Below are positions 5,610 to 21,898 of a stretch of 64,000 nucleotides of DNA, piece by piece. The position numbers and the translations under genes are program-made. The notes beneath the pieces are model-generated. The model had not been told where the DNA came from. It did no database searches and saw nothing but the letters and a program-made list of their open reading frames with translations. Origin of the DNA: Methanofastidiosum sp. (GTDB lineage Archaea > Methanobacteriota_B > Thermococci > Methanofastidiosales > Methanofastidiosaceae); contig JBAYOH010000001.1 in assembly GCA_041678455.1 (NCBI GenBank), forward strand, positions 7,387 through 71,386, in the 5' to 3' direction. Each line of letters starts with the position of its first letter. Position 1 is the first letter of the stretch.

Positions 5610-6965
5610 TTATTTCTTGCTATACTTTAAACAACTACCAATGAATTTTTGTGGGATCTCTGGAGATGTGGCAAAGTGGAGATGCAAATAAGAGGCAATG
5701 GTTTTTTTTGATACTAAGCCATCCTTCCCATCTTGAATGCCAACTCCTCTTTTCATCTCATATGCGAAGCTATCTTCATTTAAGCTTGAAACTCTTGAAT
5801 AGTGAAACTCGTGACCCCTGATTATATCGTTTTTTTTGGAAAGGATATTGTCCTTGGTGACCTTTACTTCTGCATAACCTAGGGCCTGTCTTCTTTCGGT
5901 CATTTCAATATCAGCGTCAAAGATTCCTACCATCTTAAAGGACTTGCCATCTAGGTTTACTAGTCTCTTGCAGAGGTACATTAGACTGCCACATTCCGCA
6001 TATATTGGAATTTCATCCTCAGATTTCCCCCTTATGGCAGACATTAAGGACTTATTAGCTTCAAGTTCTTTTGCAAATATCTCTGGATATCCCCCGCCCA
6101 TGTAAATGCCATCTACATCAGGGAGTTTTCCTGTGAGAGGGGAAAAGAATTCGATATCAGCACCATAAGATTTTAGGATTTCAAAGTTATCCCAATAATA
6201 AAAATTGAAGGCATTATCAAATGCAACTCCAATTTTAATTTTTTTGTCCTCTTTACCAAATAAGGATCTACCTGTGTACTCAAGCTCTTCGGCATTTTTT
6301 GAAATTTCAATTAATCTGTCTATGTTAACATTATCTTGGACTAAACCCTTAATTATTTCATATTTTTCTGGATTATATAACTCATCAGGAGGAACTAGGC
6401 CCAAATGTCTTGAATATAAAATTTTCTCTTTAACACGAGGTATGCCTCCAAGACACTCGACCCCTCTTAACGACTGCTTTAGATAATTTAGATGTTTATC
6501 GCTTCCAATATTATTGAATATAACTCCGGCTATGTTTACATCAGGATCATATTTCTGGAATCCCATAGCAATTGCACCAAGACTTCTGGCAGACCCTCTT
6601 GAATCTAAAACTAGAATGACCGGAGATTTTAATAATTTTGATAGGTGGGCTGTACTTCCCTTTTCATTTACACCATCTATCCCATCATAAAAACCCATTA
6701 CGCCCTCTATGACTGAAATATCCTTTTTTTCTGATGCTTTTAGAAAAATTTCTAGAATAGACTCTTCAAACATCCATGTGTCCAAATTTCGTGATTTATT
6801 TCCAGTCACGATGTTGTGATGCATTGTGTCAAGAAAATCTGGGCCCGCTTTGAAAGGCTGGACAGAAAGACCTCTTTCCTTTAATGATAGAAGTATTCCG
6901 GTTGTAATAAGAGATTTACCCACTCCACTTCGCTCGCCAGCAATTACGAAACGTGGAATTTTCAT
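5610..6965 (-). CDS. cbiA: Cobyrinate a,c-diamide synthase CbiA/CobB
   Basis: 451 aa. N-terminal GERSGVGKS P-loop and a C-terminal GATase (CGSLMYL). Confidence 0.9.
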   Translation of the reverse strand: MKIPRFVIAGERSGVGKSLITTGILLSLKERGLSVQPFKAGPDFLDTMHHNIVTGNKSRNLDTWMFEESILEIFLKASEKKDISVIEGVMGFYDGIDGVNEKGSTAHLSKLLKSPVILVLDSRGSARSLGAIAMGFQKYDPDVNIAGVIFNNIGSDKHLNYLKQSLRGVECLGGIPRVKEKILYSRHLGLVPPDELYNPEKYEIIKGLVQDNVNIDRLIEISKNAEELEYTGRSLFGKEDKKIKIGVAFDNAFNFYYWDNFEILKSYGADIEFFSPLTGKLPDVDGIYMGGGYPEIFAKELEANKSLMSAIRGKSEDEIPIYAECGSLMYLCKRLVNLDGKSFKMVGIFDADIEMTERRQALGYAEVKVTKDNILSKKNDIIRGHEFHYSRVSSLNEDSFAYEMKRGVGIQDGKDGLVSKKTIASYLHLHFATSPEIPQKFIGSCLKYSKK

Positions 6966-7179
6966 AATTTGGTTTTAAATTTATTTTATTATAAGCATAT
7001 CGTAATTTAATTCATGATATAAAAAAAATTAGGAATAATATTATCCCTCACATTTAAAGAGATGTTAAACTAAATCTGTTTCCCTTCTCTGAAAGCAATT
7101 TATCTGTTTTTGACATCTTTATCCTCTCTTTGATTTCAAAAATATCGGTCAATCGATTTAGTAAATCCAAGAGAGATTA

Positions 7180-7201
7180 ATATTTAGGTCAACCTAAATA
7201 T
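7180..7201. promoter_or_regulatory. Perfect 10-bp inverted repeat with a 2-nt spacer (ATATTTAGGT-ca-ACCTAAATAT) in the divergent cbiA/cobA intergenic region. Candidate operator.
   Basis: Read directly from the sequence. Lies about 80 bp upstream of the cobA start and about 215 bp upstream of the cbiA start. Confidence 0.35.
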
Positions 7202-7281
7202 ATATTCATATCCGGTAGTTTTCAAATTCCCTGTAGACCGAATATTTTTTAAATAGAAAGAGAATTCAAGAAAATGATTTT

Positions 7282-7800
7282 ATGACAGGACTCATTCAAA
7301 TTTATACCGGTAATGGAAAAGGTAAAACAACGGCCGCATTTGGGCTTGCCATGAGGGCATCTGGCAGAGGATTAAAGGTAATGATTATACAGTTCATGAA
7401 GCAGGGAAATGCTTATGGCGAATATTTTACTGCAGAAAAAATAGACAATATTGAAATAAAATCATTTGGTAGGTCAACTTTCGTATCTTATGAAAATCCC
7501 GATAACATAGATGTTGATTTAGCTGTGCAAGGTTTAGAGTTTGCAAAAAAGGTTTTAGCGGGTGCCCAATATGATCTAGTTATTCTGGATGAAGTTCTTG
7601 TTGCATTGATGTTTAAATTAATTCCATTAAATTGCCTTATAGAATTACTTAAAAATAAGCATGAAAAAGTCGAAGTTGTTTTGACGGGAAGAGGTGCTCC
7701 AAAAACTATTATTGATATGGCAGATTTGGTTTCAGAAATAGGCGAAATTAAACACCCTTATACACAAGGGATTCATTCAAGAAAAGGCATTGACTTGTAA
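7282..7800 (+). CDS. cobA: ATP:cob(I)alamin (corrinoid) adenosyltransferase, CobA/CobO/BtuR family
   Basis: 172 aa. IYTGNGKGKTTAAFG P-loop typical of the CobA/BtuR family. Confidence 0.85.
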   Translation: MTGLIQIYTGNGKGKTTAAFGLAMRASGRGLKVMIIQFMKQGNAYGEYFTAEKIDNIEIKSFGRSTFVSYENPDNIDVDLAVQGLEFAKKVLAGAQYDLVILDEVLVALMFKLIPLNCLIELLKNKHEKVEVVLTGRGAPKTIIDMADLVSEIGEIKHPYTQGIHSRKGIDL

Positions 7801-7852
7801 TAATTACTGAATTGCAGACCATTTATGAAAAAACGGCATTCAAGGAGATATT

Positions 7853-8896
7853 ATGAATTATGAGGAGGTAATTGGCAAAATTAAACCAATAGACAAAGAT
7901 TCTATGGAAAAAACTCAGAAGAAATTAGATAATCTTACAAAACCACCTGGAAGCCTTGGTAGGCTCGAAGAGTTAGCAAAGGAAATTGCCGGGATGAAAG
8001 AGACTTCAAATCCTTCTATTTCAAAAAAGGCAATATTCATATTTGCAGGGGATCATGGAGTTACTGATGAAGGAGTTTCTGCGTATTCAAAAACTGTAAC
8101 AGCTCAGATGGTCTACAATTTTGTAAGAGGAGGAGCTGCGATCAATGTTCTATCTAAAGCTATAGACGCAGAACTTATAGTTGCAGATCTTGGTGTTGCT
8201 GGAGATATATCCTCTGACAGAGTCATTATAAAAAAAGTTGGATATGGAACAAATAACTTCTGCAAGGGACCCGCAATGACAAGGGAAAATGCAATTAAAT
8301 CAATTAACTATGGAATAGAGATATTCAATCAATTCGGCCCATATGACATAATTGGTATTGGAGAAATGGGGATTGGAAACACTACACCTTCTTCTGCAAT
8401 AGCATCTGTTTTTACAGATGCCCCCGTTGAAGATGTTACTGGGAGAGGTACAGGTGTTGGTGACGATGCATACAAAAACAAGGTAAAAATAATCAAAAAA
8501 TCAATAGAATTAAACAAACCTGACAAAAATGACCCAATTGACGTTCTATCAAAGATAGGAGGATATGAAATAGGTGGTCTTGTGGGGGTAGTACTAGCAG
8601 CAGCTATGAAAAGGACACCTGTAGTAATAGATGGCTTCATATCAACAGCTGCTGCACTGATTGCTTCCAAGATGAATTCAAATGTATCTGGCTACATAAT
8701 ACCATCTCATAACTCTGTTGAGATAGGCCATATTAAGATGCTTGAGCAGATGAAAAAGAAACCGTTGTTTGAACTGGATATGAGACTTGGAGAAGGTACT
8801 GGTGCTGCAATTGGCATTTCAATCTGCGAAATGTCACTGAAACTATTAAACGAAATGGCTACTTTTGACGATGCCGGTGTTTCAAAAAAGGATTAA
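7853..8896 (+). CDS. cobT: Nicotinate-nucleotide--dimethylbenzimidazole phosphoribosyltransferase CobT (archaeal type)
   Basis: 347 aa. Motifs PPGSLGRLEELA, FAGDHGV, GEMGIGNTT. GGAG lies 5 nt upstream of the ATG. Confidence 0.9.
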   Translation: MNYEEVIGKIKPIDKDSMEKTQKKLDNLTKPPGSLGRLEELAKEIAGMKETSNPSISKKAIFIFAGDHGVTDEGVSAYSKTVTAQMVYNFVRGGAAINVLSKAIDAELIVADLGVAGDISSDRVIIKKVGYGTNNFCKGPAMTRENAIKSINYGIEIFNQFGPYDIIGIGEMGIGNTTPSSAIASVFTDAPVEDVTGRGTGVGDDAYKNKVKIIKKSIELNKPDKNDPIDVLSKIGGYEIGGLVGVVLAAAMKRTPVVIDGFISTAAALIASKMNSNVSGYIIPSHNSVEIGHIKMLEQMKKKPLFELDMRLGEGTGAAIGISICEMSLKLLNEMATFDDAGVSKKD

Positions 8897-9504
8897 TCAC
8901 TTCTATTTAATATATCCAAATCTTTTTTTGTATTTATATTAGGATATTCTTTTATGTTTTCTAAAATTATTATCTCCTCTTCCATTGGCCCATTTATCAA
9001 TTTCCCATCAATAATGTTTATCCCAAGAGGTACAACTTCAATACCATTATGTATAAAGTAGGATGTAACTGAAAATTCTTTCATTAACTTCTTTGGAATC
9101 ATCAAAGAAAGTGCAGGTTTATTCACTTTTCTATAAAGTTCCAAAATATCTTGAATTATAGATTTAGAAATTAAAGGAAGATCTCCAGAAACAATTAATA
9201 ATGGCTCAAAAAGTTTTTTCTCGTTTACTGCCCACGCCATATCTTCGATGAATCCAATGCCAGAAGTTTTAATAATTGAAATATTTTTGTTGGACCCATA
9301 TTCATTAATTAGGTATTCCTTTGTATTTGGAGAATTATCTGAAACTAGTAAAAATATTTTTTCAATTTTATCGGAGCCAATCAAAGTATCGACAACATTC
9401 TTTATGATTGGATTACCTTTGTATTGGGACAGTAATTTTTCCTCAAATAAGGAAAATCTTTCTCCTTTGCCCCCACACATAACTAGTGCTTTCATAAAAA
9501 CCAC
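8893..9504 (-). CDS. cobY: Adenosylcobinamide-phosphate guanylyltransferase CobY (archaeal nucleotidyltransferase)
   Basis: 203 aa. N-terminal MCGGKGERF nucleotidyltransferase motif. Sits in the cob nucleotide-loop operon, and its 3' end overlaps cobT convergently by 4 nt. Confidence 0.8.
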   Translation of the reverse strand: MVFMKALVMCGGKGERFSLFEEKLLSQYKGNPIIKNVVDTLIGSDKIEKIFLLVSDNSPNTKEYLINEYGSNKNISIIKTSGIGFIEDMAWAVNEKKLFEPLLIVSGDLPLISKSIIQDILELYRKVNKPALSLMIPKKLMKEFSVTSYFIHNGIEVVPLGINIIDGKLINGPMEEEIIILENIKEYPNINTKKDLDILNRSD

Positions 9505-10232
9505 TGTGAAAATATCAAAAAGACAAGTATCGCTATCCTAGAAAATTCTATCCCCACACCAATCAGATCTCCATTCACAAATCCAAATTCTTTTTTAACA
9601 AATAATAGGTAAATCAACGAGAAAAGAACTAAGACTAAGAAAGATAAAATTCCTTTAATCCCAAACAACATTGAAATAACAAAGGCTAATATTAGAGAAA
9701 AAATGAATTTTGAAGGCTTCATCTCTCTTATAAAAAGGAGCCCCATCCCTTTATTTAGGGGTTTTCCTAGTCTTAAAAGAAAACAAGCACACACTCTGGA
9801 TAGAAATTCTGCTAAAAGGACATATTGAAAAATAGCAATTCTCTCAAATGACTTTATTTCATAAAATGCTGCTATGAGTAAGAATACTGTAAAAAATCCA
9901 GAAAGAATTGAACCTGTGCCTATGAATCTATCCTTCATTATCTCTGCCCTTCTACTTTTATCTCTAACAAAAAGGGCATCACCCATATCAACTGCGCCAT
10001 CGATATGATGAAATCCTTCTAATAACAAAATAAAAAAGACACTCAAAATTGAAAAAAATATTCTTGACGGGAGGTATGACAATAAATACACTATTGATGC
10101 AGAGATTAATCCAATAATTAAACCTACCAATGGGTATAGAAAAGCGCCTTTAGCTGCACCTTCTATTGTTCTGTTGCTTCCTAAAGGTAAAATTGATGAA
10201 AACGCAAGAAGGTCAAGGAAATTTCTAATCAT
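9492..10232 (-). CDS. cobS: Adenosylcobinamide-GDP ribazoletransferase (cobalamin synthase) CobS
   Basis: 246 aa polytopic membrane protein. HHIDGAVDMGDALF matches the CobS DGxxDxxD motif. Confidence 0.85.
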   Translation of the reverse strand: MIRNFLDLLAFSSILPLGSNRTIEGAAKGAFLYPLVGLIIGLISASIVYLLSYLPSRIFFSILSVFFILLLEGFHHIDGAVDMGDALFVRDKSRRAEIMKDRFIGTGSILSGFFTVFLLIAAFYEIKSFERIAIFQYVLLAEFLSRVCACFLLRLGKPLNKGMGLLFIREMKPSKFIFSLILAFVISMLFGIKGILSFLVLVLFSLIYLLFVKKEFGFVNGDLIGVGIEFSRIAILVFLIFSQWFL

Positions 10233-11344
10233 CTATTTATCCCCTGAAATATTTTTGATGAAATTCCTGCAATGAGCCCGCCCAAAGCATCGTCCATAAA
10301 TGGTCCAAGCCCACCTATTATACCAGGTTTAATCCTTTCAACTCTTCTAAACTCAAATATCCCCCTATACCCTCCAATATATGATGCTATTGCGTCCCCT
10401 ATGGCTTCGTCAGCGATTAAATGAATGGGATCTTTTTCAAACTCACTTTTTGGAAGTCCTGGAATTATCCCTCTATATCCATCTTCCTCTGCTCTCAAAC
10501 CTGCAATAATAAGTGAAGAAACGTTAGGCTCCTTAAGATAGTATTCAAGTTCATTTTGGAATAATGACTTGAACTCATCTCTAGTTATATCATCATTGTC
10601 AATGAAAAGCTCCATTTCTGCTTTTATGATATCTTCTAAAAAAATACCCCTCTCCTTAAGCCTAGATGCCAAACTTCTCTGAGGATTATTTTTATCATAT
10701 ATTACCAGAGAATTATAAACTCCTTCATATACAAGTTCCCCTAGTGTTTTCCCTATTTTCGTTCCAGTTGACATGTACCTTTCTTTTTTGCCATTTCCAG
10801 TTGATGCAATTAAAGCGGAATCTGTAGTTGTACCTGTAGCATTTCTGTAAGAATTAACGCTTCTTATGTCAAGATCAAGTAGCGCCCGGGTCTTAGCTTC
10901 AGTCATTGTTATAATCCCCCCTACATACGCCTCTTCCTCTAAATTGGCATCTATTATTGCATAGATATTTATTGTGCAGGGTGTTAAAACAGAAGTTATT
11001 TCACCTGCTAAGGAAGCATTAGAAACACCTGCAGTAAGAAAAACTAAAACATTATTTTCTTCTTTGATAAATAAGTTCTTTACATCACATGCTGTCATCA
11101 TTCCAACTGAATCTATTGATCCTATTTTCTTTTCTACTTGCTGAAGATCTTTTTCAGGATTTTCAGAAATATAGTTTTTTTCTACTTTTTTCCCAATAAG
11201 TGTTCTGGTAAATTTCTTGCCCCCTCCAAGGATTGCAGAGCTATATGCCTTAAGGGATTCATCTGACTCAACTACAAAGAAATCATCATAAATTCTAAGT
11301 TTTACTTTGCCAGAAAGAAAACTCTTTTCCTTCAATATTTTCAT
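10229..11344 (-). CDS. cbiZ: Fusion of CbiZ (adenosylcobinamide amidohydrolase, N-terminal ~220 aa) with a PgpA-like domain (CobZ-type alpha-ribazole-phosphate phosphatase, C-terminal ~150 aa)
   Basis: N-terminal CbiZ motifs: SSAILGGG, LTAGVSNAS, ATGTTTDSAL. C-terminal PgpA-like motifs: FRRVERIKPGIIGGLGPFMDDALGGLIAG. CbiZ-CobZ fusions are known from Methanosarcina. Confidence 0.65.
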   Translation of the reverse strand: MKILKEKSFLSGKVKLRIYDDFFVVESDESLKAYSSAILGGGKKFTRTLIGKKVEKNYISENPEKDLQQVEKKIGSIDSVGMMTACDVKNLFIKEENNVLVFLTAGVSNASLAGEITSVLTPCTINIYAIIDANLEEEAYVGGIITMTEAKTRALLDLDIRSVNSYRNATGTTTDSALIASTGNGKKERYMSTGTKIGKTLGELVYEGVYNSLVIYDKNNPQRSLASRLKERGIFLEDIIKAEMELFIDNDDITRDEFKSLFQNELEYYLKEPNVSSLIIAGLRAEEDGYRGIIPGLPKSEFEKDPIHLIADEAIGDAIASYIGGYRGIFEFRRVERIKPGIIGGLGPFMDDALGGLIAGISSKIFQGINR

Positions 11345-12288
11345 GTGAATCCTCCAACTTTAAGTGGTAGTGGCAATAGGTATATTATAATTAAAACTAA
11401 TGCAAATGATACTATAGTTGATAGGAAATACAATTTTAAAGCCTTTCTCACTATTAGTGTATCTTCAAAATCAATCCCATCACCTAGGACATAATAGCCC
11501 TTCTTTTCAAGTTTAACGCCGAATATTCCAGCATATAGGGACATTATATGGCCGGAGTTTGGACTTTCAGTTGTATTATGGTATTTTCGGTAGGTTTCAA
11601 ATGATCTTTTTAAAGGATAGTTAAAAATCAAAGAACAGAATAAGGTAATTAAAACGCCAATTCGTGAAGGAATAAAATTTAAAACATCGTCAAATCTTGC
11701 TGAAATTTTTCCAAATAAAATATACCTCTCATTTTTATACCCAATCATTGAGTCAAGTGTATTTACAGCCCTAAATACTAGGCACCCATAAAACCCAAAT
11801 ATCATGAAAAAAAAGAGTGGGGATACAATGCTGTCAATAAATGATTCTCCAATACATTCAAGATTTCCTGATAGGATATGATATCTGTCAAGCTTTTTTG
11901 TATCTCTTGAAACGATGAAAGAAAGATACTTTCTAGCACCGTCTAAATCATTTTTTTCCATTGGAGTAATTATTCTCTTTGTAGCCCTTCCCATCTCATT
12001 TATTGAAAAGGTACTTTTTAAGATAAATACGGCTATTGGGAAGAAAATATAGATTGGAGCATAGATATAGATCAAATTCAGGACAAATCCTATTGATAAT
12101 GCAATTAGAACTGTAAAAAATGTAAGAAGGCCACCCATCAGAATAGAGTTTTTCCAAAATTTTTTCTCAAAGTAGCTGATAAATTTTCCAAATAATATCG
12201 TTGGGTGGATAAAAAGTGGCTTTTCTCCAATGATAAAATCATAAATAAGTGCTGAAATGATAATTGCAGCAAGTATCAATTTATCCAT
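11341..12288 (-). CDS. cbiB: Adenosylcobinamide-phosphate synthase CbiB (membrane protein)
   Basis: 315 aa. CbiB/CobD membrane-family signatures; sits in the operon. Confidence 0.85.
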   Translation of the reverse strand: MDKLILAAIIISALIYDFIIGEKPLFIHPTILFGKFISYFEKKFWKNSILMGGLLTFFTVLIALSIGFVLNLIYIYAPIYIFFPIAVFILKSTFSINEMGRATKRIITPMEKNDLDGARKYLSFIVSRDTKKLDRYHILSGNLECIGESFIDSIVSPLFFFMIFGFYGCLVFRAVNTLDSMIGYKNERYILFGKISARFDDVLNFIPSRIGVLITLFCSLIFNYPLKRSFETYRKYHNTTESPNSGHIMSLYAGIFGVKLEKKGYYVLGDGIDFEDTLIVRKALKLYFLSTIVSFALVLIIIYLLPLPLKVGGFT

Positions 12289-13354
12289 GCAATAACTCCG
12301 CCAAAGCCCCTATAAGAATCTCGTTTTCTTTTCTAGTTCTAACTGCTATCCTGATGCCACTGTCAATGCCTCTAAAGCTAGAGCAGTCCCGTACGAGGAT
12401 ACCTTTTTCATACAATTGAGATTTTATATTCGGAGAATCATCTATTTCAATGAATAGAAAGTTGGCATTTGAAGGATAGACTTTTAGTTCCAACGCCTTT
12501 AATCTTTCGAATAAAAACTCTCTTTCTTTTGAAATTGATAAAATCGTTTCATTGACAAAATCATTGCATTTTATAATATTTTCACCAATTATTTTTGCAA
12601 ATGCATTGATATTCCAGGTTAATCTCATGTTATCAAGAACTTTTGAAACTCTTTCTGATGAAACCCCAAATCCTAGTCTGATTCCTGCAACGCCTATTAT
12701 TTTCGTAAGAGAACGGGATACTATTAAGTTATCAAATGAATTTGTGAGTGAAACAAGTGAGTTCTCTTCGGAGAATTCAATGAATGCCTCATCAATCAAA
12801 ATTGGTATATCTTTTTTATTTAATATTTCAACTAAATCAATCAGGCCTTTCTTTTTAACAACTGTGCCATATGGATTATTTGGATTGGTCAAGAAAATAC
12901 ATGATGTTCTATCGTTTATTTTTCTTAAAATTTCATCAATATTAATCTGGCCTTTTTTTAGAGAAACGCTTGTTGGGATACCTCCCTTTATTAGGACAAG
13001 CTTTTCATATTCTCCGAAGGAGGGCGATGGTATAATAACTTCTGATTTTAGTTCAACAAAAGTATCAGCAAATAATTTTATGAACTCAAGTGACCCATTA
13101 GTTGGGATTATTTGATTTTGATTTACGCCAACATATCCAGCAAGAGATTTTTTTAAATTTATTAGAGAATTGTCAGGATATTCACTTATCTTATTTTTAG
13201 TAATATTGGCATTAAGTAAATCTATCAATATTTTGGGGGGGCCATGAGGATTAATATTTGAGGAAAAATCTAATTTATCTTCACTATTTTTTTTCCCTCC
13301 ATGAACTACCTGAGGAATTTTACTTAGTTCTTCTAACTTTTTTTTATATGTCAC
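12281..13354 (-). CDS. cobD: Class I/II aminotransferase-fold enzyme, most likely L-threonine-O-3-phosphate decarboxylase CobD (a histidinol-phosphate aminotransferase paralog)
   Basis: 357 aa PLP-fold protein directly upstream of cbiB in the cob operon. Context favours CobD over HisC. Confidence 0.65.
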   Translation of the reverse strand: MTYKKKLEELSKIPQVVHGGKKNSEDKLDFSSNINPHGPPKILIDLLNANITKNKISEYPDNSLINLKKSLAGYVGVNQNQIIPTNGSLEFIKLFADTFVELKSEVIIPSPSFGEYEKLVLIKGGIPTSVSLKKGQINIDEILRKINDRTSCIFLTNPNNPYGTVVKKKGLIDLVEILNKKDIPILIDEAFIEFSEENSLVSLTNSFDNLIVSRSLTKIIGVAGIRLGFGVSSERVSKVLDNMRLTWNINAFAKIIGENIIKCNDFVNETILSISKEREFLFERLKALELKVYPSNANFLFIEIDDSPNIKSQLYEKGILVRDCSSFRGIDSGIRIAVRTRKENEILIGALAELLHG

Positions 13355-13434: not shown

Positions 13435-14130
13435 TTAGATTCTCTCTATTGAAAATCTCTTTTTGTAGCGTGATAATATTTTTATTGTACGCTCTCCTAT
13501 TACTGCAACGAACATGCCATTAGCAAATGCATGGGATGTTTCCCACCAGAAACTTAGTAAATATGTCTGTATAAGTGTTTCAATTGTATGTGGTTTCACG
13601 AAAAATGCATAATGCCAGATATTCATTATCCACCCATACATATACCCCCAAAATATACCAAATGCCATAAGTAGTTTTATGTTGATTTTCTTGCCTTCCA
13701 AATATCCTGCAAAAAGCCCCGGGAGTCCCCAAGCAATCATTTGAAATGGGGTCCACGGCCCTTGACCCAAAAAAAAATTTGATACTAAAGGAGTCAATGC
13801 ACCGACAAAAAATCCTGCGGTGGGCCCAAACACAAGTCCTGTGCATATGACCAAAGTTGTACATGGCTGTATTCCAGGTAGAGTTGCAAAGGGAACCCTC
13901 AGAACAGAAGATATACCTGCTAACATGGAGATGAGAGTTAAATTTTTTGAACTTAAAGATTTTCTTTCAAATTCATGAAAAAAAGATATTATTATTAATA
14001 AAAAAATTCCAATTATCTCATAAGGCCAGTATCTTATTATGGCCCTTGATTTATCAAGAAATAAAGCAGTTCCAAACATGATGATATTAATTGAAATGAA
14101 AATCAAGGGAAAATAATAATTATTTTTCAT
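13435..14130 (-). CDS. ECF transporter substrate-specific (S) component; candidate corrinoid/cobinamide-specific (CbrT-like) by context
   Basis: 231 aa, about 6 TM. Gly/Pro-rich S-component-like core (GIQPCTTLVICTGLVFGPTAGFFVGA...WGLPGLFAGY). Overlaps ecfA by 4 nt. It is not CbiM-like: there is no MHIPDG-type N-terminus. Confidence 0.55.
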   Translation of the reverse strand: MKNNYYFPLIFISINIIMFGTALFLDKSRAIIRYWPYEIIGIFLLIIISFFHEFERKSLSSKNLTLISMLAGISSVLRVPFATLPGIQPCTTLVICTGLVFGPTAGFFVGALTPLVSNFFLGQGPWTPFQMIAWGLPGLFAGYLEGKKINIKLLMAFGIFWGYMYGWIMNIWHYAFFVKPHTIETLIQTYLLSFWWETSHAFANGMFVAVIGERTIKILSRYKKRFSIERI

Positions 14131-15779
14131 GTTAAAACTTCCAAAATTTCATCGAGTGTAAGTATATTATCTGGAATTCCATTTTTGGCATAAGGTTGTA
14201 TTAGGCGATTGATCTGTGGTGAGAATAGTAAAGCTTTGGATAAAACTTCTCTCCTATATCCATCGGTCACTACTTTACCTTCGCTAAGAAGTATAACTCT
14301 GTTTGAAAATTGTGCTGCAGTTTCAACATCATGAGTTACCATTATTACAGTTTTGTTCCTTTTTCTAAGATAATTAATTAGTTTCATTTTAATAGGGTAA
14401 TCCAATCCACGTGTAGGCTCATCTAAGATTAATATATCTGGGTCACCAACTAAAACTGAAGCAATGGCTACCCTCTGTTTTTCTCCACCTGACAAATCTA
14501 GAGGATAAGAATATTTGTATTGTGATATCCCAAATTCATCCATTATTTGGGTTACTTTTGTTTCAATAGTATCGGCGTCTTGGCCCAAATTCTTCAAAAC
14601 AAATCCAATCTCTTCTTCAACTGTTTCATTAAATAAATGCAAGTTTGGATCCTGGAAAACAATTCCTACTCTTTTTATAATTTCACTTGAAGAATAATCC
14701 TCTATTTTTTTACCGTATAAACTAATACTCCCTTTACGTTGTTTAAGTATGCCATTTATCAATTTGATGAGTGTTGTTTTACCACTGGCATTTTTTCCCA
14801 TGATAGATAATTGGTCTCCCTCCCTTAATGATAAATTAATATTTTTTAAAATATCATTTGCCCCATCATAAGAAAAATATACATTTTTCATCGAAAGAAT
14901 TTCTCTCCCCAAAGATTTTTCCTCTGGTAAATCTATAATATTGTTCATTGAACTTAGTAATTCTTTTAATGTGGTCCTTGCTTCCTTTACAGTTAAAGGC
15001 AGTTCATGATTATTCAATTTATCTGCAAATCGAAGTGAGAGTTCAGTTACTGGAGGCAATCCAATTCTCCAGTTTTTTCTTTCATTATAATTTATCTTTC
15101 TTGGGTTGTCATCAAAGATTATCTTAGAATCTTGTAGGATCAACATCCTATCAACATGATGGACCACCCTTTCCAATCTATGCTCAATTAATATAACAGT
15201 TATGCCAAGTTCATCATTAATTTTTTCGATGATATTAAGAATACTTTCAGCTGCTGCTGGATCTAATTCAGATGTAGGTTCATCCAATAATAAGATTTCT
15301 GGATGTACTGCTAGGGCAGAAGCGATAGCTACTTTTTGTTTTTGACCTCCTGAAAGATTGGAGGGATTTTCATGTCTTATCCTAGATACTCCAACAGCTT
15401 CAATCGCTTCTTCAATCCTCTTAGCTATGAGATCCGGTGAAAAACATAGATTTTCCAGAGCAAATGCTATCTCTCTTTCAACTTCATTTGTTATAAGTTG
15501 ATTTTCAGGATCTTGAAATACCATCCCCACTTTTTCTGAAAGTATATTTGTTGGAGTTTCAGAAACTTTTTTTCCAGAGACAGTTACATCTCCTTTTATT
15601 TTACCCCCATAAAAATGTGGAATTAATCCATTTATGGATCTAATAAATGTTGACTTGCCACATCCAGATGGCCCAGTAACTAAGACAAATTCTCCTTCAT
15701 CAATTGAGATGTTTATATCAGACAAGCTTGGAGAATCGTTATCCTTATACCAAAATGATAAATTGTCAAACTCAATCAT
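14127..15779 (-). CDS. ecfA: ECF transporter ATPase, fused duplicated EcfA-EcfA' (two ABC cassettes; CbiO-like)
   Basis: 550 aa with two Walker A sites (GPSGCGKST and GKNASGKTT), two LSGGQ/LSGGEKQR signatures and two Walker B/H-loop sets. Confidence 0.9.
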   Translation of the reverse strand: MIEFDNLSFWYKDNDSPSLSDINISIDEGEFVLVTGPSGCGKSTFIRSINGLIPHFYGGKIKGDVTVSGKKVSETPTNILSEKVGMVFQDPENQLITNEVEREIAFALENLCFSPDLIAKRIEEAIEAVGVSRIRHENPSNLSGGQKQKVAIASALAVHPEILLLDEPTSELDPAAAESILNIIEKINDELGITVILIEHRLERVVHHVDRMLILQDSKIIFDDNPRKINYNERKNWRIGLPPVTELSLRFADKLNNHELPLTVKEARTTLKELLSSMNNIIDLPEEKSLGREILSMKNVYFSYDGANDILKNINLSLREGDQLSIMGKNASGKTTLIKLINGILKQRKGSISLYGKKIEDYSSSEIIKRVGIVFQDPNLHLFNETVEEEIGFVLKNLGQDADTIETKVTQIMDEFGISQYKYSYPLDLSGGEKQRVAIASVLVGDPDILILDEPTRGLDYPIKMKLINYLRKRNKTVIMVTHDVETAAQFSNRVILLSEGKVVTDGYRREVLSKALLFSPQINRLIQPYAKNGIPDNILTLDEILEVLT

Positions 15780-16698
15780 AACTTATCCTCCACTTAAACA
15801 TTAATACAGGAATAACAATGACTTCAAGTAAAAATAGTATCAAAATATCTCTAATTTCAGAACTAGATTTTATTAATGGATCAACTTTTTGATAAAAGAT
15901 AAAACTTCCCTGACCTTTTGTCAACATGTATGCAGACATTAGGAGGGGTAAAAGAATAATTACCATTATAATGTACTCAGAGGGAGAGATATTGATCTCA
16001 TTAAAATAGGTTCTTTTTGGAAATCTTCCAAAGGCACGCGATTCCATCGATTCGGCCAATTGAAAACTTCTTTCCAAACTTTTTGACAAAAGAGGAAAGA
16101 AAATGGTAGCGTAATTTATTATTTTTTCTTTCATTTTACTCTTATTAAAGTCTACCCCCCTTGATCTCTGAACATCGACAATGTCATTAAAATCTCTTAA
16201 TAATATAGGTACAAATTTAGTTGTAAGGGTAGTAATCATTGTTGACTTATAGGGAAATTTAAGTTTAGTAACTGCCCTCATCAAATCGTCAGGATTTGTC
16301 GTTAGATTTATGACAGTAAAAGCCCCTAGAATTGCACCAAGTCGGATGCACATAGTCGATCCAAACATTATTTCTTCCAAAGTTATGTTAAATCTACCAA
16401 AGGCAGGTAAGGTGAATGATGTTTGCCAAAGTACAGTTTCCCCATTTCCATTTACGATTACATTAAATAAGATAATGAATGGAAAAAATAATATTGCCAA
16501 TTTTAAAAATCCAATCCATTCTCTTGTGATTTTTGATAAGACAGCAAATAGAAAAGAGGATATGAACAAAGTCAATAAGATGAGAGGATGCTCAAAAAGA
16601 ATAGAAACTAATATCACTGTAAGAAGCCATGATATTTTTATGAAAGGAGAACATTTGTGGAAAGGTGAATTTTTAAATTTGTATAAGAGGGATACCAT
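15772..16698 (-). CDS. ecfT: ECF transporter transmembrane (T) component EcfT/CbiQ
   Basis: 308 aa polytopic membrane protein at the head of the ecfT-ecfA-S operon. Confidence 0.8.
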   Translation of the reverse strand: MVSLLYKFKNSPFHKCSPFIKISWLLTVILVSILFEHPLILLTLFISSFLFAVLSKITREWIGFLKLAILFFPFIILFNVIVNGNGETVLWQTSFTLPAFGRFNITLEEIMFGSTMCIRLGAILGAFTVINLTTNPDDLMRAVTKLKFPYKSTMITTLTTKFVPILLRDFNDIVDVQRSRGVDFNKSKMKEKIINYATIFFPLLSKSLERSFQLAESMESRAFGRFPKRTYFNEINISPSEYIIMVIILLPLLMSAYMLTKGQGSFIFYQKVDPLIKSSSEIRDILILFLLEVIVIPVLMFKWRISYD

Positions 16699-16709
16699 TT
16701 AACTACCTA

Positions 16710-16726
16710 GGATGGCTAAGCCATCC
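16710..16726. promoter_or_regulatory. Palindrome GGATGG-ctaag-CCATCC (site 1), 12 nt upstream of the ecfT start codon. Candidate operator.
   Basis: Read directly from the sequence. Shares its half-sites with site 2 at 16836..16856. Confidence 0.4.
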
Positions 16727-16835
16727 ATACTTTTAAACATTTCTACAATTTCTAAAACTAACTGTGTTTTTCTAAAAAAAATTCAATATACAAACTAAAA
16801 AGAAAACTTTATATATATAGAGGTAAAATCACTTA

Positions 16836-16856
16836 ATGGATGGCGACACCATCCAT
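16836..16856. promoter_or_regulatory. Palindrome ATGGATGG-cgaca-CCATCCAT (site 2), about 20 nt upstream of the SD/ATG of the DUF4430 gene. Candidate operator.
   Basis: Read directly from the sequence. Same GGATGG-N5-CCATCC core as site 1, 128 bp away, facing the divergent transcription unit. Confidence 0.4.
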
Positions 16857-16877: not shown

Positions 16878-17843
16878 ATGGGAGAAAAGAATAGCTTATA
16901 CTTGGTTCTAGGTATAGTCTTTTTATTATTGGCAACTCCTATGACTCTACTGGCCGATTCATCAAGTTTTTCAGATATGGAAGACAGTTTCGTGAGAAAT
17001 ACGTCTTTTGTAACGGGGGAATCTGGAAACTCAATGGATTTGCTAGCTAGGGATACAGTTTCTAAGACCTTTCAATCCCAAGGACTACTTTATGGTGTTT
17101 CAGATGATAAATCCGCACCAAAGGATAGGAACCTTGTTCTAATTGGGGGTCCTGAAGTAAACTCGTTGACAAAGGAGTACAATGATATCTTTGGAATCAA
17201 GTATGAAGAAAATGAGGATACAGTTTTTATCACTGTTGATGGAACTACCGTATCAAGAAAAAAACTCAGCATAACTGAGGACATAGGGATTGTATATATT
17301 GGAAAGGCAAATAACAAGAGTATCCTTATGCTTTGGGGCGGTGCTAGAGAAGGAACATTTGCTGCAGGACTCATAATGGGAAATTCGGGGAACTGGCAGA
17401 AATACGGGAATTCTGAATATCTTCTTTTGAGATGGAATGATAACAATGGAGATAGTTTTGTACAGGAATCGGAGATCCTAGTTACATCTCAATCACCGGC
17501 AACAGCAGTGACAACAGATAATGGAAAAGACCAAGATCGGGTGACAGTGACAATAACTGCTGACTTTGGAGAAGGATATTCGAAAGAATGGAAAGATGTC
17601 AAGGTATCAAAAGACGCTACAGTTTTTGATGCCATGAAAGCCTCTGGAATGCAGTTTGATTACAATATCCAATCTTTTGGCGCATTCATTACGTCAATTG
17701 AAGGGTTGGGCGAAAATAGATCTACAGGAAAATACTGGCAATACTGGATTAATGGGAACTATGCTCAGCTCGGTGTGTCAAATCAAAAAGTTTCAGATGG
17801 TATTACAATCGAATGGAGATATACAGATGCATTCTTTAGTTAG
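16878..17843 (+). CDS. Membrane-anchored extracellular corrinoid-binding protein with a C-terminal DUF4430 (transcobalamin/BtuG-like B12-binding) domain
   Basis: The C-terminus SFGAFITSIEGLGENRSTGKYWQYWINGNYAQLGVSNQKVSDGITIEWRY matches the DUF4430 signature (G.YW.Y.VNG....G......DGD.I.W.Y). Start moved to 16878 (MGEKNSLYLVLGIVFLLLA, a signal/TM helix) because GGAGGT lies 7 nt upstream; the track ATG at 16836 has no SD and lies inside the palindrome. Confidence 0.7.
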   Translation: MGEKNSLYLVLGIVFLLLATPMTLLADSSSFSDMEDSFVRNTSFVTGESGNSMDLLARDTVSKTFQSQGLLYGVSDDKSAPKDRNLVLIGGPEVNSLTKEYNDIFGIKYEENEDTVFITVDGTTVSRKKLSITEDIGIVYIGKANNKSILMLWGGAREGTFAAGLIMGNSGNWQKYGNSEYLLLRWNDNNGDSFVQESEILVTSQSPATAVTTDNGKDQDRVTVTITADFGEGYSKEWKDVKVSKDATVFDAMKASGMQFDYNIQSFGAFITSIEGLGENRSTGKYWQYWINGNYAQLGVSNQKVSDGITIEWRYTDAFFS

Positions 17844-17855
17844 AGGTGAAAACAA

Positions 17856-20783
17856 ATGAAGAAAATAATAACAACTTTAATTTTAGTGGCTTTCCTGGTT
17901 TCGCTAGCGCCAAGCTATTCGGCAGAGGAACTTCCAGATAGAAATTTCTTTATTGACGAAAATGGAAATCCCCAATGTTTGATAGTATTGAGTGAATCTG
18001 CTACTGCAAAGGATATACAGAAGGTAGCAGAAATTGTGACAAAAATCACAAATGAAACATACTATAGTGTGACGGGTACCGATGAGAAGATCATATGGGA
18101 ATCGCCAAGCTTAGTTGAAGATGACCACGATAATGTTGCACTTGGTTATACTGGAGTTAAGTCAAATCCGGATTGGGTATGGGAGATGAGAAGCTTTACA
18201 ACACCTGCCTATTTCTTCTCACACGGCGGAGATCCTGCTCCCGATTGGCCAAATTGTCCATTCTATGTAGAGAGTGTTGAAGCTTTATTTGATGGAGATA
18301 GAAATACAAGGATTGTAGGTAGAACTGGATATGATTATTCAGGGCCAAACTATGCACCCGTTACATTAATAGTTAAATTCAACGAAACAAAGAAAATTTC
18401 TGATGTTAACTTCACATTTGAAAATCTCCCCGTTGCTGCAGGATATCAAATATATTACTTAAACTCTGACTGCCCAAACCCCTTATATGATCCTTCTATG
18501 TGGATGTACGGTCCAACTGGAAACTGGACTTTGTTACCGGTTAGTGGCGGCTGGCCACGCCCAGGAAGCGCTACTAAGATGACAGATAGTTTTTCATTGA
18601 TTAATCCTGTGAACACAAATGCATTATTTATTGAACTTAATCCAGAGTATTATACTCCTCCAAATCCAACTATGCCTTACTCATTGTATGAGATTGAGGC
18701 GAAGGGCAGTTCATTCTCAATATTATATGGAAACTCTTATTACATTGACTTCTCCTGGGCACGTAAAACACCTGGCCAAAATAAGAATCTTCTAAAAAAC
18801 TTTGACTATTGGATTGAGGATATAAAGGAAACATTACCTGGTGACTTTATTCAAACTGCGGGAAAGAGTTACTCAAGTGAAACTGCAAGCTATAATCTTC
18901 TAAATCACCAGATAAATCTTCTAAGGATGTATAAATATAACAAGGATGAGATTTTCCAAGACAAGGCAGTGGGAAGGGTATTCTATGGAACACCAAGAAC
19001 ATGGGAGAATGAGGAATTCAAGGTTGGCCAAACAAAGACTTATGGTAATTACAAAGTTAAACTAGTTGATATCAACTGGGACAAGAGCCAAACTACTGTT
19101 AATTTTGACCATAAAACTGGAAGATATTATCTTGGTGAACAGAAAACTACAATTGAAGTTACAGATCCTGAAGGCAACACTAAAACACATATTATGAGAG
19201 TTAACTGCTGCGATAATGTTTTAGCTGAACTCTTTGTAAACACTGAAGCAGAGTCCTTGGCAGCTACAAAGGCCATTTGCAGATTAAAGACTGAAGGATA
19301 CCTTTGCGATATTACTCCAATAATTTACCATTCAAATATGAGTGAATCAAACATTGACCCATTTTACAATAGCGAATCAAAAGACCATTTTAGCATGGGT
19401 GATGATGGCGCATGGACCTATACCTATATCTATGGGTATGGATATGACTATAATTCAGCACTTAGTTATCCTACCTTGATATTCAATGGAAATAAATCAA
19501 AAGCCATTCAAAAGATATCCCCAAACACAGAAGATGTATATTATGAAGCGTTTAAAAATGCGTATGAAGCAAATGCTAGCAGATGTTGTGATGCAAACAT
19601 AATCATAAACACTAATATGGATCCTGAGAGATTTACAACAACAAAAGATAGGGAAGCCTTAGTAACTGTAAGATTGAATAAAGATCTACCAAACACAGAA
19701 CTATATCTAAATGTGTGGAGCATTGACTGCAGTTGTTGTGCTCCTGTTGCTACTGGGCTTATAAATTCACAACACTGGCAGAATATCAATAAATGGACGA
19801 CAGAATGTGGTGAAAAAGTTACCGAGACAACTTGGAAAGATCTAAAAAATGGTGATGTTTACAGGACAGAAATAAATCTATGTGGTACAAATTACTGCGG
19901 ACTTATTGCGTTCCTACAAGACAAAAACACTGGGAAGATTTACGGCTCTGCAATTAGACATTTTCCCCCTGCGCCGGGATCAAACTTGTCACCCGGCATA
20001 GCGTCGTCTGATTGTCAATGTGTAATTGAGTACAACAAGGACCTAGATTGTGATAATTATAAGGAAGAGGTTGAGTTTGCAATTGAAGGTGCCGATGTAG
20101 CATTCGTTGGGATGGAGCATGATTTAGAAAAGAATATTGATGGTGAGATAAAGAAACATATGATAGCAAGATTCAATATTTACACAGTGACTGATTACGG
20201 ATGCATCGATGACTGTGACTGTAACTACATTCAAAATGACGGCTCCATGTGGAAACTAAGATTTTTGATGAACGATGGCAATCTCTATAATCCTTATGTT
20301 GATAGATGTCAAGACTGTACAAAAGATCTTCGTTCAATTAAAATCGAGCTCTGTGAGCCAATACCATTTGACTGCCTTAAAGAAGGTGCAGTGTTCTGGG
20401 GCCCAGACAGGTACTTTAGAGTCTATGTTGAGGACTATGATGAAGAGAAATACTATATCAAATACAAGATACAGAGTGTAGATGAGATTCCAAAGAAAGA
20501 AGCAGTCAATGTGAATGTTGAGCCAACTAACTTGATAAGAATAGACAAGCAGATTACAGCAAGTGATAGAGCAAAGTACAATATGATCCTGATTGGAAAC
20601 AAGGACAACAATGAAGAGATAAAGAGAGTCTATGATATCGGAAACTTCACCGACTCTGAAGGCATGATATACCTAAAAGAGATCTACGGCAAAAAGGATA
20701 TACTCATCCTGAATGCAGCCAATGTCTCTGATCTAAACGAGCCGATCAAACAGCTTTCATATCTTCTTGATATGATACTATAA
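17856..20783 (+). CDS. Large secreted Cys-rich surface (glyco)protein with a signal peptide, many N-x-S/T sequons and a discoidin/galactose-binding-like segment; function unknown
   Basis: 975 aa. Signal peptide MKKIITTLILVAFLVSLAPSYSA. ALFDGDRNTRIV...YQIYYLNSD...NWTLL resembles an F5/8-type-C fold. The C-terminal LIGNKDNN...ILILNAANVSD motif resembles LVLIGGPEVN... in the DUF4430 protein. GAGGTGA SD upstream. Confidence 0.55.
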   Translation: MKKIITTLILVAFLVSLAPSYSAEELPDRNFFIDENGNPQCLIVLSESATAKDIQKVAEIVTKITNETYYSVTGTDEKIIWESPSLVEDDHDNVALGYTGVKSNPDWVWEMRSFTTPAYFFSHGGDPAPDWPNCPFYVESVEALFDGDRNTRIVGRTGYDYSGPNYAPVTLIVKFNETKKISDVNFTFENLPVAAGYQIYYLNSDCPNPLYDPSMWMYGPTGNWTLLPVSGGWPRPGSATKMTDSFSLINPVNTNALFIELNPEYYTPPNPTMPYSLYEIEAKGSSFSILYGNSYYIDFSWARKTPGQNKNLLKNFDYWIEDIKETLPGDFIQTAGKSYSSETASYNLLNHQINLLRMYKYNKDEIFQDKAVGRVFYGTPRTWENEEFKVGQTKTYGNYKVKLVDINWDKSQTTVNFDHKTGRYYLGEQKTTIEVTDPEGNTKTHIMRVNCCDNVLAELFVNTEAESLAATKAICRLKTEGYLCDITPIIYHSNMSESNIDPFYNSESKDHFSMGDDGAWTYTYIYGYGYDYNSALSYPTLIFNGNKSKAIQKISPNTEDVYYEAFKNAYEANASRCCDANIIINTNMDPERFTTTKDREALVTVRLNKDLPNTELYLNVWSIDCSCCAPVATGLINSQHWQNINKWTTECGEKVTETTWKDLKNGDVYRTEINLCGTNYCGLIAFLQDKNTGKIYGSAIRHFPPAPGSNLSPGIASSDCQCVIEYNKDLDCDNYKEEVEFAIEGADVAFVGMEHDLEKNIDGEIKKHMIARFNIYTVTDYGCIDDCDCNYIQNDGSMWKLRFLMNDGNLYNPYVDRCQDCTKDLRSIKIELCEPIPFDCLKEGAVFWGPDRYFRVYVEDYDEEKYYIKYKIQSVDEIPKKEAVNVNVEPTNLIRIDKQITASDRAKYNMILIGNKDNNEEIKRVYDIGNFTDSEGMIYLKEIYGKKDILILNAANVSDLNEPIKQLSYLLDMIL

Positions 20784-20836
20784 TTTTTTCTTTTTTATTT
20801 TCCACAAACAAAAGTAATATATATTAACATTCCAAA

Positions 20837-21448
20837 TTGATTGATATGTTTGAGAGAAGGATAATCCCACAGGCAAACTTCACCAATGCAGACATCCTAA
20901 TCGCGCTAAAGATTATCGAGAAGGAGGATGGCATAGGGAGAAAGCTTCTTTCAAAGAGAATTTTTCTAAATGAGGCTAGCATTAGATCAATCCTTTCCAA
21001 ACTAAAGGATATGGAATACATTGATTCATCAAGAGTTGGCCAGAAGATCACAGGGAAGGGCAAGAAGTTCCTAGAAAGCTCTACAAAATTTGGTATCCCC
21101 TCAGAAATCAACGCCAAAGAGCTGACCTTGAATAACAAAAACTTCGGTACAATAATAAAGGGCGCATCGTTAAAAATAAAGGATGGAATGGACCAGAGGG
21201 ACAGAGCGGTCTTTGGCGGGGCAAGGTCTGCAATCACCCTGATATTTAGAGATAATCAATTTGCCCTCCCAGAAACAAGGCCTGAGATAAAAATCCCGAC
21301 AATAAAACTGAATTTGAGTAGGGCCTTAGAAACTGAACTCCATGATAAATTTGGCCCTAAAAATAACGATATAGTCATAATATCAAGTGCAGAAGATGAA
21401 GAGCGTGCATTTAGAGGGATAGTCCACGTGATTGACTCTTTTATTTAA
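20837..21448 (+). CDS. Predicted DNA-binding protein with an N-terminal winged-helix domain and a C-terminal domain of unknown function (regulator-like)
   Basis: 203 aa. ILIALKIIEKEDGIGRKLLSKRIFLNEASIRSILSKLKDMEYI is wHTH-like. The real start may be ATG 20846 (MFERR). Confidence 0.4.
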   Translation: MIDMFERRIIPQANFTNADILIALKIIEKEDGIGRKLLSKRIFLNEASIRSILSKLKDMEYIDSSRVGQKITGKGKKFLESSTKFGIPSEINAKELTLNNKNFGTIIKGASLKIKDGMDQRDRAVFGGARSAITLIFRDNQFALPETRPEIKIPTIKLNLSRALETELHDKFGPKNNDIVIISSAEDEERAFRGIVHVIDSFI

Positions 21449-21583: not shown

Positions 21584-21898
21584 CTACTGTTCCTGTTTAC
21601 TGCGATATTCTCGCATTTCTTCTAGATCGTGGAATGATTTGAAAAAGTTATCTATACGTATGATGAGCTCCTTCTTCCCTTTTTCAGTTAGTGAGTATCT
21701 CTTTTCTTCATCGTCACTAATTAGGCCTCTGTCTTTAAGTTTTTTTAAGACTGGGTAAATTGTCCCAGGGCTAAACCTACGACCTTTTCTTTTTTCCATC
21801 TCATCTGTTATCTCGGACCCGTTCATCTTATCGTTTCTTAATATCCACAATATCAAAAAAGATAGGAATCCCCTGCCCTGGTGTTTATGGTCCCGCAT
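21584..21898 (-). CDS. PadR-family transcriptional regulator
   Basis: 104 aa. The FLILWILRNDKMNGSEITDEM...GTIYPVLKKLKDRGLI pattern is classic PadR wHTH. Confidence 0.85.
   Translation of the reverse strand: MRDHKHQGRGFLSFLILWILRNDKMNGSEITDEMEKRKGRRFSPGTIYPVLKKLKDRGLISDDEEKRYSLTEKGKKELIIRIDNFFKSFHDLEEMREYRSKQEQ

Follow-up and report, generated by a model that had tools for sequence, protein, structure and literature searches.

A putative corrinoid binder with a transcobalamin-like domain and an S-layer-family paralogue encoded beside a CbrT-like ECF transporter in Methanofastidiosum

How do archaea collect corrinoids from outside the cell? To our knowledge, little is known about archaeal corrinoid acquisition, especially in methyl-reducing methanogens, which depend on corrinoid methyltransferases. 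The question is raised by a locus in a stretch of 64,000 nucleotides from Methanofastidiosum sp. (GCA_041678455.1, contig JBAYOH010000001.1, positions 7,387 to 71,386), hereafter called the window. Two adjacent genes, A and B, lie here divergently from the genes for a transporter of the energy-coupling factor (ECF) type. The initial annotation, made from the sequence alone, had proposed that their products form a surface-displayed apparatus that scavenges vitamin B12 and feeds the ECF transporter. The coordinates and open reading frames (ORFs) of both genes are as it described. Its proposal on A is retained, as A is co-regulated and co-evolving with the CbrT-like ECF genes; the role of B is revised, as B belongs to an S-layer family.

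It is likely that the locus concerns corrinoids and that protein A acts with the CbrT-like ECF importer. The proposal that B is the envelope partner of A is more tentative. To the whole reading, in which A binds corrinoids outside the cytoplasm and feeds the ECF transporter, with B as its envelope partner, we assign a probability of about 0.5. The corrinoid role is assigned to A because of its transcobalamin-beta fold, the CbrT-like S-component and the adjacent set of cobinamide-salvage genes. B is favoured as the partner because it is an S-layer paralogue with hypervariable insertions, is co-transcribed with A, and shares a dimerising domain with A.

From the N- to the C-terminus, protein A consists of a helix (signal or anchor), the S-layer domain PF05124, a flexible linker and DUF4430. 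Model confidence is given as the predicted local distance difference test (pLDDT) of AlphaFold2 (AF2).

16878-17843, plus strand: gene A, 321 amino acids (aa)
16878..16964, plus strand: signal peptide or signal anchor of A, aa 1-29 (hydrophobic LYLVLGIVFLLLATPMTLLA; helix in the AF2 model)
16995..17492, plus strand: contiguous PF05124 anchoring/dimerisation-type domain of A, aa ~40-205 (Pfam, end of TIGR01564, 9FSA)
17493..17540, plus strand: Ser/Thr/Pro-rich flexible linker of A, aa ~206-221 (pLDDT <50; variable among A homologues)
17541..17831, plus strand: DUF4430, putative corrinoid-binding domain of A, aa ~222-318 (Pfam PF14478, Foldseek)

The C-terminal DUF4430 domain of A, already named in the initial annotation, is well supported. 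Pfam DUF4430 (PF14478) matches aa 246-316 with an E-value of 2.2e-13 (50.9 bits against a cut-off of 23.8) and covers positions 1-71 of the 72 in the profile. In the AF2 model (mean pLDDT 71), aa ~40-205 form an alpha/beta domain at pLDDT 80-91, aa 206-217 of the linker are below 50, and the C-terminus forms a beta domain. The best Foldseek match of A in the PDB is 9FSA (TM-score, TMt, 0.62), followed by beta domains of transcobalamin and by 3u7z, a stand-alone structure of DUF4430. For the DUF4430 fold, the matches are 5np4 (TMt 0.69), 5no0 (TMt 0.68) and 3u7z (TMt 0.77), with probability 1.00.

Members of the A family share an invariant motif, G-x-F-x-TSIEGL-x-ENRS-x-G-x-YWQ, which aligns with the cobalamin-contacting hairpin of transcobalamin, haptocorrin and intrinsic factor. 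L358 of transcobalamin, as counted from the 5no0 construct, which begins at Q307, falls inside this hairpin, and its backbone hydrogen-bonds the phosphate of cobalamin (PMC5599065). Crystal structures of the isolated transcobalamin beta domain contain bound cyanocobalamin and cobinamide (PMC5599065). The motif alignment suggests that A, a putative extracytoplasmic protein with a transcobalamin-beta fold, may bind corrinoids. BtuG of Bacteroides had been cited as an example of DUF4430, but this is not correct. BtuG is a seven-bladed beta-propeller (PMC10404256), and no beta-propeller is present among the listed fold matches or the Pfam domains of A. DUF4430 is properly compared with transcobalamin, intrinsic factor and haptocorrin, in their beta domain.

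A contains no Cys and three N-glycosylation sequons. It had been described as membrane-anchored; the N-terminal hydrophobic helix is indeed present, but the helix may be either a cleaved signal peptide or a signal anchor, and anchoring is not established by it.

The second domain of A connects it to B. Both proteins exceed the Pfam gathering threshold for PF05124 (S_layer_C). In A, this family ("S-layer like family, outer domain") matches aa 81-164 with an E-value of 6.7e-7 (29.6 bits against 23.9). TIGR01564 matches A only at the C-terminal model positions 503-564, and the profile of A matches 9FSA with an E-value of 0.0015. The structure 9FSA shows the "cell wall anchoring" domain of the S-layer protein of Methanococcus voltae (M. 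voltae). This domain is composed of residues 24-75 and 484-576, between which the lattice-forming body is inserted, and makes the two-fold dimer contact of the lattice (PMC11410804). A motif common to A and the C-terminus of B had been noticed in the initial annotation. It corresponds to the beta-alpha-beta core of PF05124, an S-layer anchoring and dimerisation domain: NLVLIGGPEVN...ILMLWGG of A and NMILIGNKDNN...ILILNAA of B align with KLILVGGPVAN...VLVVAGG of 9FSA. In B, the motif (LIGNKDNN...ILILNAANVSD) sits in the C-terminal scaffold. PF05124 is contiguous in A and split between the two termini in B. Judged from Pfam, PDB and fold evidence, the link between A and B is a real homology that becomes visible through a third party.

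The ECF genes are arranged as follows, together with the genes behind them.

13435..14130, minus strand: ECF S-component, CbrT-like, 231 aa (Pfam ECF_trnsprt and ECF-ribofla_trS; 6FNP chain A)
14127..15779, minus strand: fused EcfA-EcfA' ATPase, 550 aa, two ABC domains (TIGR04520/TIGR04521)
15772..16698, minus strand: EcfT, CbiQ family, 308 aa (Pfam CbiQ, E 3e-28)
5610..13354: corrinoid salvage/remodelling genes CobQ, CobA, CobT, CobY, CobS, CbiZ-CobZ, CbiB, CobD (Pfam, NCBIfam)

A CbrT-related S-component, EcfT and two EcfA domains are all present. The best solved relative of the S-component is chain A of 6FNP, the ECF-CbrT cobalamin/cobinamide transporter (E 7.5e-8); the protein fails every NCBIfam cut-off for S-components. 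The fused ATPase matches TIGR04520 and TIGR04521 in two stretches, with E-values of 1e-130 to 1e-135. ECF-CbrT transports cobalamin and cobinamide (PMC5997447). In the same study, ECF transporters are described without soluble or tethered binders, with the S-component in the role of substrate-binding protein. On the same strand behind the ECF genes are CobD, CbiB, CbiZ-CobZ, CobS and CobY, and further out CobT, CobA and CobQ. A complete cobinamide-salvage gene set thus adjoins the ECF genes in this genome. From this context, the ECF module is read as a CbrT-like putative cobalamin importer. The ECF and cobinamide-salvage genes, and the palindromic sites above them, had been reported in the initial annotation, and they are recovered by Pfam, NCBIfam and the palindrome scan.

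Two gene fusions are seen among these genes. One is EcfA-EcfA' as a single-chain ATPase (14127-15779, minus strand). The other is CbiZ-CobZ (10229-11344, minus strand), a CbiS-like bifunctional amidohydrolase/alpha-ribazole phosphatase, which scores just under the NCBIfam cut-off.

The control elements of the locus lie mainly between EcfT and A.

16710..16726: operator palindrome 1, GGATGGCTAAGCCATCC, beside the ECF promoter (palindrome scan of 64 kb and relatives)
16808..16819, plus strand: TATA-like box of the A-B operon (sequence inspection)
16838..16854: operator palindrome 2, GGATGGCGACACCATCC, over the predicted A-B transcription start (palindrome scan and relatives)
17844..17849, plus strand: ribosome-binding site of B, AGGTGA, within the A-B gap (sequence inspection)
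20784..20800, plus strand: oligo-T tract, probable archaeal terminator of the A-B operon (TTTTTTCTTTTTTATTTT directly after the stop)

The stop codon of A and the start codon of B are separated by 12 nt, which contain AGGTGA, and an oligo-T tract follows B. A and B constitute one operon, because the gap with its ribosome-binding site is too small for a promoter and the terminator tract comes after B. The palindrome GGATGG-N5-CCATCC is found twice in 64 kb, where 0.08 sites are expected by chance, and both sites are in the EcfT-A intergenic region. Looser operator searches gave no further credible site in the window.

For comparison, 12 Methanofastidiosum loci, including nine GTDB species representatives, were collected. 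Both palindromes are kept in all 12, and each of the two divergent promoters has one of them next to its TATA-like box. In the relatives, an ATATAT box abuts the A-side palindrome, and the ECF-side palindrome is beside a minus-strand TATA-like box. This placement is consistent with repression. The operator looks like a protein-based substitute for a B12 riboswitch. No riboswitch was found in the window: Rfam detected neither riboswitches nor other RNA families over the whole 64 kb, and there are no tRNAs either. The literature searched on archaeal B12 regulators contained nothing directly relevant. An alternative start of A at 16836, which gives a longer ORF, was rejected. The operator encloses this ATG, and in most homologues the start corresponds to 16878, behind GGAGG.

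The two palindromes are 128 bp apart in the window and 63 bp apart in all relatives. An insertion of ~65 bp (window 16727-16837) doubles the spacing and parts the TATA box from the A-proximal operator. A third operator copy (GGATGGCGACACCATCC) is seen behind a TATA box in five relatives, beyond the S-component gene (L009, 6190-6365; also L004, 5249; L007, 5855; L010, 378). It precedes a 47-aa zinc-ribbon-like ORF with CxxC...CxxC and a 39-aa ORF, at the place where the window and L013 hold the cob salvage genes. This ORF pair is also present in L014, there without a strict operator copy, and is absent from the window. In most loci, the gene that directly follows B encodes a protein with a winged helix-turn-helix (wHTH) and DUF4443 (20837-21448, plus strand). 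A regulator of the PadR family is encoded nearby (21584-21898, minus strand). Either of them could be the factor that binds the palindrome.

The initial annotation had suggested checking relatives for co-occurrence of A and B with the ECF S-component. This was observed in all 12 loci, which share a five-gene layout of S-component, EcfAA' and EcfT with A and B on the opposite strand. B is always at this place and in one operon with A. All homologues of A and B come from metagenome-assembled genomes (MAGs) of Methanofastidiosa, apart from a few with evidently mis-binned labels. The latter are P0004, P0018 and P0026, which comprise A homologues and a protein with 100% identity to B and are filed as proteins of Deltaproteobacteria or Bacteroidales MAGs. 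Their contigs are almost certainly mis-binned Methanofastidiosum DNA.

In pairwise identity, A follows the pattern of EcfT, EcfS and EcfAA', and the loci fall into the same three tight groups. The EcfS, EcfAA', EcfT and A alleles of the window are joint outliers. They show 52-69% aa identity to every other locus, while the remaining loci have 75-99% identity among themselves. Identity is higher in the flanks: the cob genes are 94-98% identical to those of L013, the gene for alanyl-tRNA synthetase (AlaRS) is 97% identical to that of L004, and the flanking DNA is 89% identical, in comparison with 65-71% within the module. The divergent stretch extends from 13427 to ~18000, from EcfS to the first ~50 codons of B. 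As joint outliers within close flanks, A and the transporter behave as one co-inherited cassette, apparently replaced as a unit in this lineage. It looks like a ~4.5-kb transporter-binder cassette was replaced by a divergent allele, possibly one with a different ligand specificity.

Protein B is of a different kind, and its features are these.

17856-20783, plus strand: gene B, 975 aa
17931..18122, plus strand: N-terminal half of PF05124 in B, aa ~26-89 (Pfam, BLASTP, pLDDT 75-83)
18153..18755, plus strand: hypervariable module 1 of B, discoidin/CBM32-like beta-sandwich, aa ~100-300 (conservation, Foldseek)
18780..19244, plus strand: central S-layer scaffold domain of B, conserved, aa ~309-463 (BLASTP)
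19245..19898, plus strand: hypervariable module 2 of B, aa ~464-681 (strain-to-strain swapping)
19899..20780, plus strand: conserved C-terminal scaffold of B, including the C-terminal half of PF05124 at aa ~885-975 (BLASTP, pLDDT)

The sole Pfam match in B is PF05124, which is marginal (26.2 bits against a gathering threshold of 23.9). It spans aa 35-952, split between the N- and C-termini, which is the topology of the M. voltae protein; the relatives P0050-P0066 show the same split. B has no NCBIfam match, failing the full-length criterion of TIGR01564 (S_layer_MJ), and its profile matched none of the PDB sequences. The homologue search, which took in 1.84 billion representatives, returned a single close cluster plus distant relatives, all with split PF05124. 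Among the latter are a Theionarchaea "S-layer protein" and Methanofastidiosum proteins of 621-1053 aa. A homologue search with a mixed S-layer alignment returned the P0056 family alone. BLASTP shows that B is collinear with its S-layer relatives in three segments, aa 1-89, ~309-463 and ~682-975. The N-terminus of B matches S-layer protein N-termini, the central scaffold (80-90% conservation) matches P0050, P0109 and P0056 among others, and the C-terminus matches S-layer protein C-termini with E-values down to 1e-19. For aa ~100-300 and ~464-681, no BLASTP match is reported in most canonical paralogues. These two stretches, modules 1 and 2, are the least conserved in B, and module 1 is the lowest. 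Based on these comparisons, B is considered to be a divergent paralogue of the Methanococcales/Thermococcales-type S-layer protein with two inserted hypervariable modules.

The AF2 model of B has a mean pLDDT of 41, with a shallow alignment, and three local regions are usable. The pLDDT is 80-86 for aa 890-950 and 75-83 for the N-terminal half of PF05124. The third region, aa ~170-270 (pLDDT 72-82), is a beta-sandwich with Foldseek matches to IFT25, CBM32 and a chitosan-binding module (TMt 0.54-0.68). The discoidin-like stretch noted in the initial annotation finds a counterpart in local fold matches at TMt 0.6-0.68, but not at the Pfam threshold: F5_F8_type_C scores 14.3 bits against a gathering threshold of 28.2 (E 0.047). 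Module 1 is tentatively described here as discoidin/CBM32-like.

B has a Sec-type signal peptide, 25 Cys (2.6% against 1.05% across the window ORFs) and 10 N-x-S/T sequons, in agreement with its description as a secreted, Cys-rich protein with many glycosylation sites. Canonical S-layer paralogues have 14-15 Cys, 7-11 sequons and vicinal CC pairs as in B. As they are equally Cys-rich with the same CC pairs, these properties are traits of the whole family. The idea that the cysteines of B form a special metal or cofactor site was dropped for the same reason.

Block-wise comparison of B among strains shows conserved PF05124 ends and two modules that are swapped independently on near-identical backgrounds. 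The history of B is separate and mosaic.

In the favoured reading, A would be exported and held under or within the S-layer, as its PF05124 domain has the fold of the membrane-proximal dimerising anchor of M. voltae. The DUF4430 domain, on its Ser/Thr-rich linker, would bind cobamides or cobinamide and pass these on to the S-component related to CbrT. After import, the corrinoid would in this genome be remodelled by the products of the adjacent CbiZ, CbiB, CobY, CobS and CobZ genes. B, translated from the transcript of A, would most likely pair with A via PF05124 or place A in the lattice, and would expose its two hypervariable modules at the cell surface. A regulator binding GGATGG-N5-CCATCC, in response to a presumed signal, would control both divergent promoters.

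Several points weigh against this reading. The conserved hairpin in the DUF4430 model of A has a low pLDDT of 37-41. High-affinity binding by transcobalamin requires its alpha domain (alpha6/alpha6 barrel), which A does not have; binding would need the beta domain alone or another partner. In the literature searched, DUF4430 is mentioned only incidentally, and no report of corrinoid binding by a prokaryotic DUF4430 domain was found. ECF transporters are not known to us to require extracytoplasmic binding proteins. The cob salvage genes adjoin the ECF genes in only two of the 12 loci, the window and L013. The gene order of the whole region is conserved in the genus, and adjacency alone is weak evidence. 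The direct similarity between A and B is not significant, either by phmmer (anchor domain of A and termini of B against all window ORFs) or by hhalign. The structural model of B is poor overall. Finally, B has not shared the history of A and the ECF genes: L004 and L009 have 96% identity in A but 69% in B.

The last point leads to a serious alternative, which we consider rather unlikely, that B is the structural S-layer protein, or one of them, and has no specific role in corrinoid uptake. A would dock to it via PF05124 and would still serve the ECF transporter, and the two genes would be neighbours only because of this docking or through history. B has the full scaffold of the family with the split PF05124 and a family-typical content of Cys and sequons, and recombining exposed modules are expected of an outermost envelope protein under pressure from viruses. 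The initial annotation had itself considered that the large protein could be a general S-layer protein at unrelated loci in relatives, and the closest homologue in an outgroup (Theionarchaea) is an S-layer gene that stands alone amid housekeeping genes. A 180-aa ORF upstream of that gene was considered as an A-like partner and ruled out; it is unrelated to A and looks like a helix-turn-helix protein. Within Methanofastidiosum, however, B is always encoded here with A, second in an operon behind a locus-specific operator common to the transporter promoter. Canonical-size PF05124 proteins of 637-646 aa are encoded at other loci of the same genomes. The MAG CAZCMP01 has B plus a monocistronic 646-aa PF05124 protein, and GYA60 has B plus two such paralogues. 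The canonical paralogues score 55-120 bits on PF05124, against 26 for B, and B is ~330 aa longer.

Methanofastidiosum genomes also encode other PF05124 paralogues, of at least two families (637-641 aa and 644-658 aa) with ~49% mutual identity. They are monocistronic and at unrelated loci (L018, 6001-7941; L020, 6001-7920), and are Cys-rich as B is, with the same vicinal CC pairs.

Another possibility is that the module imports a different tetrapyrrole or cofactor, such as a corrinoid precursor, coenzyme F430 or a haem-like compound, and not cobamides. The absence of adjacent cob genes in most relatives, the modest CbrT match with failed NCBIfam cut-offs, and the existence of ECF S-components for haem (PMC7299338) would fit this view. 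On the other hand, the characterised proteins found with the DUF4430 fold, transcobalamin, intrinsic factor and haptocorrin, all bind corrinoids, the window and L013 tie the ECF genes to CbiZ, CbiB, CobS and CobY, and a bacterial DUF4430 locus adjoins the gene for the corrinoid adenosyltransferase CobA. We regard import of such another compound as quite improbable. It is very improbable that B is, instead of a lattice subunit or portal, a carbohydrate-binding adhesin attaching through its CBM32/discoidin-like module to partners or matrix, possibly to corrinoid producers: the galactose-binding-domain-like fold does lie in the most variable module, and the sources of homologues indicate dense anaerobic-digester consortia as the habitat, but the Pfam match is below threshold and the model is confident only locally.

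The bacterial locus is found in a Paceibacterota MAG (L016, 6324-10803). It encodes, in this order, ribonucleotide reductase, the adenosyltransferase CobA, a DUF4430 protein of 144 aa with a helix at its N-terminus, and a 187-aa polytopic membrane protein of DUF6580. The stop of the DUF4430 gene overlaps the start of the DUF6580 gene. No solved relative of the DUF6580 protein was found by sequence. This locus independently connects DUF4430 with B12 and with a small membrane carrier, and the last two genes may be a minimal bacterial B12 uptake pair parallel to the archaeal system. Another DUF4430 locus, L017, is incomplete at a contig end.

The reading of A as a corrinoid binder that serves the ECF transporter, with B as its envelope partner, can be compared with known systems. 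The beta domain of transcobalamin, intrinsic factor and haptocorrin has the fold and the conserved hairpin motif in common with A. In contrast to transcobalamin, A joins DUF4430 to an archaeal S-layer domain and would have a transporter, not an endocytic receptor, as its partner. ECF-CbrT of Lactobacillus delbrueckii (6FNP) likewise consists of an S-component, EcfT and two ATPase domains. The module here differs in its dedicated group I-like operon with a fused A-A' ATPase, and in an extracytoplasmic binder and an S-layer paralogue, neither of which is in the ECF-CbrT study (PMC5997447). BtuG, BtuH and BtuJ of Bacteroides, with BtuB, are a functional analogy, as surface corrinoid binders beside a co-regulated transporter (PMC10404256, PMC8941943). 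The folds are unrelated to that of A; BtuJ is a DUF4465 protein. Unlike A, the Bacteroides binders are lipid-anchored on the outer membrane, controlled by riboswitches, and feed a TonB-dependent transporter.

S-layer proteins of Methanococcales and Thermococcales share the split PF05124 and a collinear scaffold with B; A has the same domain in contiguous form. B differs from the canonical proteins by its two extra hypervariable modules, its weak PF05124 score and its failure on TIGR01564, and by co-transcription with a DUF4430 protein behind a specific operator. A differs in using PF05124 as a carrier for a putative ligand-binding domain. The literature searched on the Methanofastidiosum S-layer contained nothing directly relevant.

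The components are all of known kinds: an importer of the ECF-CbrT type, the transcobalamin beta fold, the Methanococcales-type S-layer domain, and accessory surface binders of B12. A fusion of DUF4430 with an S-layer anchor that is locked to an ECF transporter, together with a specialised S-layer paralogue, behind a protein operator, was not found in the literature searched. The idea of a transcobalamin-like binder that is tethered through an S-layer domain and linked genetically to an ECF importer can be tested here on a concrete case. It also suggests that the PF05124 anchor domain is reused as a general docking module. The module swapping in B and the replacement of the ECF-A cassette inform on how envelope and uptake genes diversify in uncultured archaea.

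A stronger version, in which A and B are a dedicated corrinoid portal in the archaeal S-layer, is doubtful. B, inserted in the lattice by way of the family scaffold, would admit corrinoids of ~1.4 kDa, and A, paired with B via PF05124, would catch them beneath and deliver them to the ECF transporter. If so, an extracytoplasmic binding protein would be seen for the first time in an ECF transporter, and archaea would have a counterpart of the BtuB-BtuG complex of the outer membrane. The two hypervariable modules of B would then be the mark of an arms race with viruses whose receptor is the portal.

Beyond this locus, a 158-aa ORF (24280-24756, minus strand), which adjoins the AlaRS gene, shows a weak match to the N-terminal region of archaeal type IV pilins.

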